Positions 822 to 5,888 of a DNA stretch of 64,000 bases are shown here, piece after piece (position 1 is the stretch's first letter; each line of letters starts with the position of its first letter). The notes under the pieces are model-generated. The model made no database searches. It was not told the DNA's origin and was given only the letters and a program-made list of their open reading frames with translations. The DNA lies in NCBI RefSeq assembly GCF_048403405.1, contig NZ_CP183129.1; one strand, written 5' to 3'. The position numbers were made by a program, and so were the translations under genes. The stretch is from Escherichia coli. GTDB lineage: Bacteria; Pseudomonadota; Gammaproteobacteria; Enterobacterales; Enterobacteriaceae.

Positions 822-2042
822 ATGTCTCAGCCAATTACGCGTGAAAACTTTGATCAATGGATGATACCTGTTTACGCTCCGGCACCGTTTATACCGGTAC
901 GTGGCGAAGGTTCGCGCTTGTGGGATCAGCAGGGGAAAGAGTATATCGACTTCGCGGGTGGCATTGCGGTGAACGCGCTGGGCCATGCGCACCCGGAACT
1001 GCGTGAGGCGCTGAACGAACAGGCGAGTAAGTTCTGGCATACCGGCAACGGTTACACCAACGAGCCGGTACTGCGACTGGCGAAAAAATTGATCGACGCC
1101 ACGTTTGCCGATCGCGTCTTCTTTTGTAACTCCGGTGCGGAAGCCAACGAAGCGGCGCTAAAACTGGCGCGTAAATTCGCTCACGACCGCTACGGCAGCC
1201 ATAAGAGCGGTATCGTGGCGTTCAAAAATGCGTTTCATGGTCGCACGCTGTTTACTGTCAGTGCGGGTGGGCAGCCCGCCTATTCACAGGATTTTGCGCC
1301 ACTGCCGCCGGATATTCGTCATGCTGCATATAACGATATTAACTCTGCCAGCGCGCTGATTGACGACTCTACCTGTGCGGTGATTGTCGAACCCATCCAG
1401 GGGGAAGGCGGTGTGGTGCCAGCCAGCAACGCATTTTTACAAGGTCTGCGTGAATTGTGTGACCGCCACAATGCGCTGTTGATTTTTGATGAAGTACAAA
1501 CCGGCGTCGGGCGCACCGGGGAACTGTATGCCTATATGCACTACGGCGTGACGCCTGATCTGTTAACTACCGCCAAAGCGCTGGGCGGCGGTTTCCCGGT
1601 CGGTGCGTTGTTGGCAACCGAAGAGTGCGCCAGCGTGATGACTGTTGGCACTCATGGCACCACCTATGGCGGCAATCCGCTGGCCTCGGCGGTGGCAGGC
1701 AAAGTGCTGGATCTCATCAACACGCCAGAGATGCTTAATGGCGTTAAACAGCGTCACGACTGGTTTGTTGAGCGTCTTAATACCATTAATCACCGCTACG
1801 GTTTGTTCAGTGAAGTTCGCGGCTTAGGTTTGTTGATTGGTTGCGTGTTGAATGCCGATTACGCCGGGCAAGCGAAACAGATCTCTCAGGAAGCGGCGAA
1901 AGCAGGCGTGATGGTACTGATTGCGGGTGGCAACGTGGTGCGTTTTGCGCCTGCGCTCAATGTTAGCGAAGAAGAGGTGACGACCGGACTGGATCGCTTT
2001 GCAGCTGCTTGCGAACACTTTGTTAGCCGAGGTTCTTCATGA
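822..2042 (+). CDS. astC: Succinylornithine transaminase
   Basis: 406-aa ORF; class III aminotransferase sequence; first gene of the astCADBE arrangement. Confidence 0.95.
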
Positions 2043-3073
2043 TGGTCATCCGTCCCGTTGAGCGTTCAGATGTCTCGGCGCTGATGCAGCTTGCCAGCAA
2101 AACGGGCGGCGGCCTGACGTCGCTTCCCGCCAATGAAGCCACGCTTTCGGCGCGTATCGAAAGGGCAATCAAAACCTGGCAAGGCGAACTGCCCAAAAGT
2201 GAGCAGGGCTATGTGTTCGTGCTGGAAGATAGCGAGACAGGCACAGTGGCGGGGATTTGCGCCATTGAGGTGGCAGTTGGGCTGAACGATCCCTGGTACA
2301 ACTATCGCGTCGGCACGCTGGTTCACGCTTCGAAAGAGCTGAATGTCTATAACGCGTTGCCGACGCTGTTTCTCAGTAACGATCACACCGGCAGCAGCGA
2401 GCTGTGCACGCTGTTTCTCGACCCGGAGTGGCGCAAAGAGGGCAACGGCTATTTGCTGTCGAAATCGCGCTTTATGTTTATGGCGGCTTTTCGCGACAAG
2501 TTTAATGACAAAGTGGTTGCCGAAATGCGCGGGGTGATTGACGAACATGGCTATTCACCGTTCTGGCAAAGCCTCGGTAAGCGCTTCTTTTCGATGGATT
2601 TTAGCCGCGCCGATTTTCTCTGCGGCACCGGGCAAAAGGCATTTATTGCAGAACTGATGCCGAAACATCCGATCTATACCCACTTTTTATCTCAGGAAGC
2701 CCAGGACGTCATCGGTCAGGTACATCCGCAAACCGCGCCTGCCCGTGCGGTACTGGAGAAAGAAGGTTTTCGCTACCGTAATTATATCGACATCTTCGAC
2801 GGTGGGCCGACGCTTGAGTGTGACATCGACCGCGTGCGCGCCATCCGTAAAAGTCGGCTGGTGGAAGTGGCAGAAGGGCAGCCTGCGCAGGGCGATTTTC
2901 CGGCCTGCCTGGTCGCCAATGAAAATTATCACCATTTCCGCGTGGTGCTGGTGCGTACCGATCCGGCAACCGAGCGTTTGATTTTAACCGCCGCACAACT
3001 GGATGCCCTCAAATGCCACGCAGGGGATCGCGTTCGTCTGGTGCGCCTGTGCGCAGAGGAGAAAACAGCATGA
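2039..3073 (+). CDS. astA: Arginine N-succinyltransferase
   Basis: 344-aa ORF; start overlaps astC stop (ATGA). Confidence 0.95.
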
Positions 3074-4548
3074 CTTTATGGATCAACGGTGACTGGGTGA
3101 CGGGCCAGGGCGCATTGCGTGTGAAGCGTAATCCGGTATCGGGCGAGGTGTTATGGCAGGGCAATGATGCCGATGCCGCTCAGGTCGGGCAGGCTTGTCG
3201 GGCTGCCCGTGCGGCGTTTCCGCGCTGGGCGCGGCTCTCATTTGCTGAACGTCAGGCAGTTGTCGAACGCTTTGCCGCACTGCTGGAAAGCAATAAAGCC
3301 GAATTAACCGCGATTATTGCCAGAGAAACCGGTAAGCCGCGCTGGGAAGCGGCAACCGAAGTGACGGCGATGATCAATAAAATCGCGATATCAATTAAGG
3401 CGTATCACGTTCGTACCGGCGAGCAGCGTAGTGAAATGCCGGACGGCGCGGCGAGCCTGCGACATCGCCCGCACGGCGTGCTGGCGGTGTTTGGGCCGTA
3501 TAATTTCCCTGGTCATTTGCCGAACGGACATATCGTTCCGGCATTGCTGGCAGGTAACACCATTATCTTTAAACCCAGCGAACTGACACCGTGGAGTGGC
3601 GAAGCGGTAATGCGTTTATGGCAGCAGGCTGGCTTGCCGCCGGGCGTGCTGAACCTGGTGCAGGGCGGGCGTGAAACGGGTCAGGCGCTGAGTGCGCTGG
3701 AGGATCTCGACGGCTTGCTGTTTACCGGTAGCGCCAATACTGGCTACCAGTTGCATCGTCAGCTTTCCGGTCAGCCGGAGAAAATTCTCGCCCTTGAGAT
3801 GGGCGGTAATAATCCGCTAATTATCGATGACGTGGCGGATATTGATGCCGCTGTCCATCTGACCATTCAGTCGGCGTTTGTCACTGCCGGGCAACGCTGC
3901 ACTTGTGCCCGCCGTTTATTGTTGAAAAGTGGAGCGCAGGGCGATGCATTTCTTGCCCGCCTGGTTGCCGTCAGCCAGCGATTAACGCCGGGCAACTGGG
4001 ATGACGAACCGCAGCCGTTTATTGGCGGGCTGATTTCTGAACAGGCCGCACAGCAGGTGGTTACTGCCTGGCAGCAACTGGAAGCGATGGGCGGACGAAC
4101 CCTGCTTGCGCCGCGCTTATTACAAGCAGGGACATCGTTGCTGACGCCGGGGCTCATTGAAATGACAGGCGTTGCTGGCGTACCAGATGAAGAGGTGTTC
4201 GGACCGTTATTGCGCGTCTGGCGTTATGATACTTTCGATGAAGCGATTCGAATGGCGAATAACACTCGCTTCGGACTCTCTTGCGGACTGGTTTCCCCCG
4301 AGCGGGAAAAATTCGATCAACTGTTGCTGGAGGCGCGGGCGGGGATTGTTAACTGGAACAAACCGCTTACCGGCGCTGCCAGTACCGCGCCATTCGGCGG
4401 CATTGGCGCTTCCGGTAACCATCGCCCCAGCGCCTGGTATGCCGCAGATTATTGTGCCTGGCCGATGGCGAGCCTGGAGTCGGACTCGTTAACATTGCCC
4501 GCCACACTTAACCCCGGGCTGGATTTTTCCGAAGAGGTGGTGCGATGA
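3070..4548 (+). CDS. astD: Succinylglutamate-semialdehyde dehydrogenase
   Basis: Aldehyde dehydrogenase family ORF; I chose ATG 3070 ([10 protein letters not shown]..., 492 aa, ATGA overlap with astA stop) over the track's upstream start at 3013. Confidence 0.9.
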
Positions 4549-5888
4549 ACGACTGGGAAGTCAATTTCGACGGGCTGGTAGGGCTGACGCATCATTACGC
4601 GGGCCTGTCGTTTGGTAATGAAGCCTCTACCCGTCACCGTTTTCAGGTCTCTAACCCGCGACTGGCGGCGAAACAGGGCTTACTGAAAATGAAAACCCTT
4701 GCCGATGCGGGATTCCCCCAGGCCGTGATCCCGCCGCACGAGCGTCCGTTTATACCGGTTTTACGTCAGTTGGGATTCAGTGGTAGCGATGAACAAGTGC
4801 TGGAAAAGGTTGCACGCCAGGCACCGCACTGGCTTTCCAGCGTTAGTTCCGCTTCGCCAATGTGGGTAGCCAATGCGGCAACGATCGCGCCATCTGCCGA
4901 TACGCTGGATGGCAAAGTGCATCTCACCGTTGCCAACCTGAACAATAAATTTCACCGTTCGCTGGAAGCCCCCGTCACTGAATCGCTGTTAAAAGCGATT
5001 TTTAACGACGAAGAGAAATTTAGTGTCCATTCGGCGTTGCCGCAGGTAGCCTTGCTCGGTGATGAGGGGGCGGCAAACCACAATCGTCTCGGCGGTCATT
5101 ACGGTGAACCGGGTATGCAACTTTTTGTCTACGGGCGAGAAGAAGGCAATGATACCCGGCCTTCCCTTTATCCGGCGCGGCAGACTCGCGAAGCCAGCGA
5201 GGCGGTGGCAAGGCTGAATCAGGTGAATCCCCAACAGGTGATTTTCGCCCAGCAAAACCCGGACGTTATCGACCAGGGCGTTTTTCATAATGACGTGATT
5301 GCCGTGAGTAACCGCCAGGTGCTGTTTTGCCATCAACAGGCGTTCGCTCGACAGGTGCAGTTACTGGCAAACCTGCGTGCGCGGGTGAACGGTTTTATGG
5401 CGATAGAAGTTCCGGCGACTCAGGTTTCCGTGTCAGATGCGGTGTCTACGTATCTGTTTAACAGCCAGTTACTGAGCCGCGATGATGGTTCCATGATGTT
5501 GGTGCTGCCTCAGGAGTGTCAGGAACACGCAGGAGTATGGCGTTATCTCAATGAACTCCTTGCCGCTGACAACCCGATTAGCGAACTAAAAGTCTTTGAT
5601 TTACGTGAAAGCATGGCGAATGGCGGAGGCCCGGCGTGCCTGCGGTTGCGCGTGGTGTTGACAGAAGAAGAACGCCGGGCGGTGAATCCGGCGGTGATGA
5701 TGAACGATACCTTGTTTAATGCGCTCAATGACTGGGTGGATCGTTACTACCGCGATCGTCTTACTGCTGCCGATCTGGCCGACCCGCAATTGCTGCGCGA
5801 AGGGCGGGAAGCACTGGATGTATTGAGCCAATTACTGAATCTCGGTTCGGTTTATCCGTTCCAGCGCGAGGGAGGGGGCAATGGATAA
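4545..5888 (+). CDS. astB: N-succinylarginine dihydrolase
   Basis: 447-aa ORF; ATGA overlap with astD stop. Confidence 0.95.

Follow-up and report, generated by a model that had tools for sequence, protein, structure and literature searches.

Translational coupling within a metabolic operon is known classically from trpE/trpD of the trp operon. Coupling of trpB/trpA has likewise been cited (PMC10666635), and for Escherichia coli the -99 to +30 regions of five native ATGA junctions, astDB among them, were placed between two reporters by Huber et al. in 2019 (PMC6728339). In this dual reporter, 'strong translational coupling' was reported for astDB, together with a stable structure predicted at its initiation region (PMC6728339), and bioBF, which is also an ATGA pair, showed no coupling. 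That is to say, the ATGA geometry alone is no proof of coupling. The published E. coli gene-pair table already gives distances of -4 for astC/astA, astA/astD and astD/astB and of -8 for astB/astE (negative values are overlaps and positive values spacers, in nucleotides, nt), and all four pairs are flagged there as 'CMPLX not', that is, as not being subunits of one complex (PMC10666635 supplement). The present analysis concerns the astCADBE operon of the arginine succinyltransferase (AST) pathway in a 64,000-nt stretch of E. coli DNA (contig NZ_CP183129.1), which is called the window below. Taken as a whole, the best explanation of this locus, with a rough probability of 0.8, is a normal compact astCADBE operon with coupled stop-start junctions, whose overlaps came from lineage-specific compaction and whose astD gene starts at position 3070.

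The ast genes of the window are the well-known E. coli astCADBE operon, with the co-directional order C-A-D-B-E and products of the aminotransferase, AstA, aldehyde dehydrogenase, AstB and AstE families in the Prokaryotic Genome Annotation Pipeline (PGAP) annotation of an identical record; on the orthologous loci, the Pfam families PF00202, PF04958, PF00171, PF04996 and PF24827/PF04952 were matched. It had been claimed from the sequence that all four internal junctions overlap, by 4, 4, 4 and 8 nt in gene order, and the open reading frame (ORF) table and the raw sequence agree exactly with this, the stretch common to astB and astE being ATGGATAA (5881-5888). The PGAP coordinates on the 100%-identical record NZ_CP103479.1 (strain 4621) equal those of the window, the record of K-12 MG1655 carries identical ast starts, and three further E. 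coli genomes, the most divergent of those sampled (96.2-96.9% identity), show no change in the coordinates. The overlaps are real, ordinary and already known, and are present both in RefSeq and in the published genome-wide table.

As for the allele itself, the region 700-6900 of the window matches strain 4621 at 100% identity, and most of 5,424 complete E. coli genomes at about 97%. An identity of at least 99% is reached in only 9 of the 5,424, so the ast allele or lineage of the window is a comparatively rare one.

Table 1. Features of the astCADBE region in window coordinates (aa, amino acids; SD, Shine-Dalgarno motif).
Feature	Positions	Strand	Description	Basis
Sigma-54-type promoter element	734-749	+	TGGCACG-N4-CTGCA upstream of astC	consensus match
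astC	822-2042	+	succinylornithine transaminase, 406 aa	ORF; PGAP on identical record; 99% identical to K-12 b1748
astC/astA junction	2029-2044	+	SD GAGG 2029-2032, 6-nt spacer; ATGA 2039-2042; second in-frame ATG 2042-2044	sequence
astA	2039-3073	+	arginine N-succinyltransferase, 344 aa	ORF; PGAP; K-12
Upstream in-frame ATG of the astD ORF	3013-3015	+	rejected start; 511 aa	longest ORF
astA/astD junction	3056-3073	+	SD GAGGAG 3056-3061, 8-nt spacer; ATGA 3070-3073	sequence
astD	3070-4548	+	succinylglutamate-semialdehyde dehydrogenase, 492 aa	ORF; PGAP; K-12; PDB homologues
astD/astB junction	4534-4548	+	SD GAGGTG 4534-4539, 5-nt spacer; ATGA 4545-4548	sequence
astB	4545-5888	+	N-succinylarginine dihydrolase, 447 aa	ORF; PGAP
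astB codons 442-447	5868-5885	+	clade-specific C-terminal extension	AstB length comparison
astB/astE junction	5868-5888	+	GAG 5868-5870 at former stop; SD GGAGG 5871-5875, 5-nt spacer; ATG 5881-5883; TAA 5886-5888	sequence
astE	5881-6849	+	succinylglutamate desuccinylase, 322 aa	ORF; PGAP; K-12
Hairpin just 3' of astE	6856-6877	+	9-bp stem, CCCGCAGAA-ATCA-TTCTGCGGG	sequence

All four distances lie within the range of -8 to +10 that is used for stop-start overlap pairs, whose typical geometries are ATGA and TGATG, and an SD-like motif inside the upstream gene precedes each of the four downstream ATGs at 5-8 nt. On one polycistronic mRNA, every downstream start would lie on or just before the upstream stop, with its SD in the last codons of the upstream gene. 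A ribosome ending the upstream gene could then reinitiate at the adjacent AUG, or it could melt local structure so that a new 30S subunit binds; by either route, translation of the downstream gene would follow that of the upstream gene. Such dependence was demonstrated at astD/astB by the published reporter, and the same behaviour would be expected at the other three junctions. The coupling route may be either true 70S/30S reinitiation or an unmasking of the initiation site, to which a new 30S subunit then binds.

In-silico folds were made on the -99 to +30 spans, and the mean probability of being unpaired over -15 to +5 was taken, with a z-score against shuffled sequences. For astD/astB this mean was 0.30 (z +0.48), with both SD and start paired in the minimum free energy structure, and for astB/astE it was 0.26 (z -2.2). 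The values were 0.42 (z +0.04) for astC/astA and 0.47 (z +2.4) for astA/astD, the latter being less structured than its shuffles. From these models, astB/astE probably behaves like astD/astB, and astC/astA and astA/astD may have a mix of coupled and independent initiation. The original prediction had read the overlaps as tight translational coupling across the entire pathway; this stands for astD/astB, and for the other three junctions the claim exceeds the evidence; the folds show no uniform occlusion of the initiation region there. Coupling across all of the pathway in E. coli is plausible, though unproven at three junctions; as a property of the pathway, it is not conserved.

How unusual a run of four overlaps is depends on the scale of comparison. 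The window has about 41 other same-strand neighbour pairs, of which just 2 overlap (btuE/btuD, -1; ydiT/ydiS, -4), so that four in a row are locally conspicuous. In the E. coli genome, 707 of 2,987 unidirectional pairs (24%) lie at -8 to +6, and the commonest single geometry is ATGA, followed by -1 and -8 (Huber et al. 2023, PMC10666635). If independence is assumed, a rough estimate of 0.24^4 over about 3,000 positions gives about 10 four-overlap runs per genome; that is, by this rough calculation such a run is uncommon, yet genome-wide not remarkable, being expected a handful of times per genome.

In order to see how far the overlaps extend, about 90 orthologous operons were compared, including those of Salmonella, Citrobacter koseri, Enterobacter, 80 genomes representative of their species, which an AstB profile picked out, and K-12. 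The five genes were placed by tblastn, each junction was measured, the sequences were inspected by eye, and the clades were summarised with a start rule that prefers ATG. In the Escherichia/Salmonella/Citrobacter group (9 loci), astC/astA is at -4 (Salmonella -10), astA/astD and astD/astB are at -4, and astB/astE is at -8; the astC/astA junction of one of the nine, the Escherichia albertii draft, was not scorable, since its astC is split by a frameshift. In the other Enterobacteriaceae and the Erwiniaceae (17 loci), astC/astA is at -4 throughout, astA/astD at -4 in 15 and -1 in 2, astD/astB at -4 in 15 and -14 in 2, and astB/astE is spaced by +8 to +85 in all 17. In Serratia, Yersinia, Rahnella and Photorhabdus (9 loci), only astA/astD remains tight (-4 or -1 in 7, +2 and +5 in the other 2), with astC/astA at +21 to +57, astD/astB at +10 to +239 and astB/astE at +10 to +271. 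The four Acinetobacter loci have spaced astC/astA, astD/astB and astB/astE junctions, and astA/astD at -1 in one and spaced in the rest. For the aruCFGDBE operons of Pseudomonas (23 loci), the astC/astA equivalent is at +60 to +245, aruG/aruD at -1 or -4 in 18 of 21, the astD/astB equivalent at +22 to +282 with one at -1, and aruB/aruE at about +310 to +390.

The state in which all four junctions overlap is therefore confined, among the operons compared, to the Escherichia-Salmonella-Citrobacter clade. Within Enterobacterales, astB/astE overlaps are found in this clade only, and outside the order three Burkholderiales loci were called heuristically at -17. Consistent overlap of both astC/astA and astD/astB is seen only in Enterobacteriaceae/Erwiniaceae, with a few scattered astD/astB overlaps elsewhere. 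The astA/astD junction, which is tight (-4 or -1) in 26/26 Enterobacteriaceae/Erwiniaceae, 7/9 Yersiniaceae/Photorhabdus and 18/21 Pseudomonas loci, is the sole junction that is tight across the gammaproteobacteria surveyed, and many loci of other gamma- and betaproteobacteria (groups G6 and G7 of the survey) have it spaced. Conservation of the overlaps in other enterics had been proposed as a check, and orthologous operons without them had been named as what would refute the claim; operons lacking one or more of the overlaps were indeed found, outside the Escherichia-Salmonella-Citrobacter clade. As a supporting mark of coupled pairs, overlap conservation is broad for astA/astD only. Because the overlaps are missing across most of its range, the AST pathway does not require them, and from overlaps in a row in a single species it does not follow that the pathway needs coupled translation. 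Their absence in relatives does not disprove coupling in E. coli.

Some loci of this comparison are worth recording in their own right. In the draft genome of E. albertii NBRC 107761 (locus L007, 3280-4495), the astC frameshift lies near codon 297, with two tblastn segments in different frames, and this split astC is either a pseudogene or an error of the draft assembly. The gap between aruB (astB) and aruE (astE) is constant at about 310-390 nt in 22/22 Pseudomonas loci (for example, L045, 7606-7931), into which a small conserved gene would fit. In addition, the aruF/aruG-like astA paralogues overlap by ATGA in 5/5 betaproteobacterial loci of Burkholderiales/Neisseriales (L061, L063, L072, L076 and L081), whereas in Pseudomonas this F/G junction is at +51 to +122.

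The origin of the astB/astE overlap is readily traced. The AstB of most other Enterobacteriaceae (Enterobacter, Kluyvera, Pluralibacter and others) has 441 aa and ends in ...YPFQ(R/Q), followed by TAA or TAG; that of Serratia (446 aa) and of Rahnella (447 aa) is likewise stopped directly after YPFQ(R/Q). In most of these relatives, about 10 nt with GGAG lie between the astB stop and the astE ATG. Both in E. coli and in typical relatives with a +10-nt spacer, such as Enterobacter, 13 nt lie between the FQR codon and the astE ATG, and the first triplet of this 13-nt stretch is GAG in E. coli against TAA/TAG in the relatives. E. coli AstB runs six codons further, to a TAA stop formed by codons 2-3 of astE (ATG GAT AA). 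These six-residue tails vary freely (EGGGNG, TGAADG, EGAGNG, ERASHG, ERTRHG and ETTSHG), as expected for unconstrained read-through. Since all outgroups have the stop, the 8-nt overlap is taken as derived by stop-codon loss: as judged from this comparison, the ancestral astB stop was lost in the ancestor of Escherichia, Salmonella and Citrobacter, and the old 13-nt spacer was read through. It is thus a clean small example of the birth of an overlap, in which a stop is lost and the old ribosome-binding spacer is absorbed by the upstream gene.

Similar drift of stops is seen at other junctions. The 10-nt astC/astA overlap of Salmonella results from TGA becoming TGC, which adds 2 codons to astC, and the 14-nt astD/astB overlap of Enterobacter from a similar drift that adds 3 codons to astD. 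Codon 2 of astB always starts with A in the lineages with ATGA, although the residue varies (N/T/K/S/R), while the lineages with a spacer have TCN, GCN or GTT there; this constraint suggests that the ATGA geometry is maintained once acquired. On this account, astA/astD would have been tight since ancient times, astC/astA and astD/astB would have turned into ATGA in the Enterobacteriaceae/Erwiniaceae lineage, and the overlaps would be the outcome of lineage-specific operon compaction with no requirement by the pathway. What this analysis adds, as small new points, is the stepwise pattern of compaction across the phylogeny and the origin of the astB/astE overlap by stop loss.

Rearranged and decayed ast loci were also met. 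Two IS1-rich 4.4-Mb genomes (L087 and L088; GCA_015475595.1 and GCA_002949815.1; proteins P0002-P0009) have decayed ast genes, with IS1 in astC, a truncated astD and a split astE. A 2-nt deletion within the astD/astB ATGA fuses AstD 340-492 in frame to AstB 2-447, and the 599-aa product occurs on about 90 contigs. In a single metagenomic contig, a 609-aa protein (P0063) joins AstB 1-372 to AstE 55-322 through an internal deletion across the astB/astE junction.

Several points weigh against the explanation by compaction with coupled junctions. The literature searched gave no coupling data for astC/astA, astA/astD or astB/astE, and no paper was found that joins astCADBE with translational coupling by those terms. 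Good SDs stand at all four starts and the astC/astA and astA/astD regions are fairly open, so independent initiation could dominate at these two junctions. Ribosome profiling under depletion of the ribosome recycling factor has been used to argue that reinitiation is not a major coupling route in E. coli (PMC7538156). As for the comparison, the starts of distant species came from a homology-projection heuristic, three of which were corrected by hand: astD had been miscalled as TTG in Serratia silvae and Yersinia artesiana (corrected to -1 and -4, respectively), and as a late ATG in Acinetobacter boissieri. Absolute synthesis rates of the five Ast proteins were not found in the literature consulted, in which one ribosome-profiling paper that mentions the operon gives fold changes of mutant over wild type only, and a nitrogen-physiology paper promoter fusions only.

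The alternative that survives best is that stop-codon drift and deletion bias produced the overlaps as neutral by-products, with independent SD-driven initiation and little functional coupling besides astD/astB. The stops do visibly drift (by 2 codons in Salmonella astC, 3 in Enterobacter astD and 6 in astB of the Escherichia clade), there are working orthologous operons with spacers of 10-300 nt, every ast junction has a good SD, bioBF shows that an ATGA pair can be uncoupled, and the Ast enzymes are flagged as being without heteromeric complexes. However, astD/astB is coupled by experiment, and the ATGA at three junctions has been retained in 26 species (about 70-100% AstB identity), with the second codon held to an initial A, which suggests that the geometry is maintained. 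Taking both sides together, neutral origin without coupling is possible, but we would not bet on it.

According to a second alternative, the overlaps were selected for fixed stoichiometry or co-translational assembly of the Ast enzymes, an AstA-AstD complex being the obvious candidate. This would agree with astA/astD being at -4 or -1 from Escherichia to Pseudomonas and with the 4.5-fold enrichment of short overlaps for complex subunits in E. coli (PMC10666635). However, the curation of the ast pairs as not forming a complex speaks against it, no Ast heterocomplex turned up in the literature consulted, and the spaced astA/astD junctions of groups G6 and G7 do not fit; such selection is improbable. 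In its most far-reaching form, the ast operon would be a record of stepwise compaction, from one tight junction (Yersiniaceae, Pseudomonas) to three (Enterobacteriaceae/Erwiniaceae) and then four (Escherichia-Salmonella-Citrobacter), in which the conservation of astA/astD could reflect an unrecognised need for a fixed AstA:AstD ratio, or two interacting proteins between which succinylated intermediates are passed on; we hold this only as a long shot.

The longest astD ORF begins at 3013, where no SD precedes the ATG, while GAGGAG and 8 nt ahead of 3070 are nearly invariant in Enterobacteriaceae. In Salmonella, C. koseri, Enterobacter, Kluyvera, Pantoea stewartii and others, a stop in the astD frame lies 1-4 codons upstream of the ATGA start, which makes an upstream start impossible there, and in relatives with an open upstream frame its translation shows no conservation. 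In a comparison of the 511-aa long form with the PDB, the alignment to the AstD structures 3ju8, 5u0l and 4kna starts at residue 20-21, the Met at 3070, and the 19-residue extension is without similarity. A start at 3013, with its 61-nt overlap, was rejected on these grounds, and a start of astD at 3070 is strongly supported by the comparison of sequences. The original prediction had taken the overlap as support for this downstream start; the start is right, and its basis is the stops of the relatives, the conserved SD and the onset of homology, not the overlap.

For astA, which opens with ATGATG, the second in-frame ATG (2042) would give a 1-nt overlap, so that astC is overlapped with either start. 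ATGATG is present at the astA start in 25 of the 26 Enterobacteriaceae/Erwiniaceae loci; Salmonella has ATGCGGGTGA, with the first ATG only, and the MM at the AstA N-terminus is kept even where a spacer precedes astA, which favours 2039 over 2042. That the overlaps are in part an annotation artefact (astD at 3013 and/or astA at 2042), as the longest astD ORF and an SD spacing that fits both astA ATGs (6 and 9 nt) might suggest, is hardly credible in view of the evidence just given for both genes. The public start calls for astA, astD, astB and astE are confirmed as sound.

The pattern TGGCACGNNNNYTGCW has its sole match in the window at the element upstream of astC, with 0.02 expected by chance, and we take this element to be the known NtrC/sigma-54 promoter of astC. 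The hairpin just 3' of astE is, from its sequence, the likely operon terminator; a simple terminator scan did not call it, its T tract being weak. Within astCADBE, sigma-70-like promoter matches and terminator-like matches did not exceed shuffled controls, and an Rfam scan of the interior gave no match. Elsewhere in the window, ves (7867-8442, +) and cho (8402-9289, -) are convergent and share 41 nt at their 3' ends, and espL1, a type III secretion effector gene (27601-29499, -), is annotated between yniD and thrS as an accessory gene of a region that is core otherwise. The Rfam matches of the window are the small RNA RprA (61968-62075, -), the Phe leader (pheM; 33317-33441, +) and the small RNA STnc540 (37137-37295, +), the last at the 3' end of ihfA; all three are expected in that part of the E. 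coli chromosome.

Compared with the known systems, the nearest is astCADBE of K-12 (b1748-b1744), which has the same genes, order, relative starts and stops and the overlaps -4/-4/-4/-8; its b1744-b1748 proteins are 98-100% identical to those of the window, xthA and spy flank both, and the differences are strain-level substitutions only. The aruCFGDBE operon of Pseudomonas and the astCADBE operons of Yersiniaceae and Acinetobacter have orthologous genes in the same order as E. coli, with astA (aruG)/astD likewise at -1 or -4, but unlike E. coli their other junctions are 10 to more than 300 nt apart, and Pseudomonas further differs in having two AstA paralogues and the long aruB-aruE gap. The termination-reinitiation pairs of Huber et al. 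(2019, 2023), namely, hyfHI and astDB along with ydbH/ynbE and menDH, share with the ast junctions an ATGA and an intragenic SD, and astDB is itself among the tested pairs; however, the class in which overlaps are enriched consists of complex subunits, which the Ast proteins are not (PMC10666635). In the same way, the trp overlaps (trpE/trpD and trpB/trpA) resemble those of ast in being short stop/start overlaps in a metabolic operon with the downstream SD within the upstream gene, but the products of the trp pairs are subunits of heteromeric enzymes, whereas the Ast enzymes act separately.

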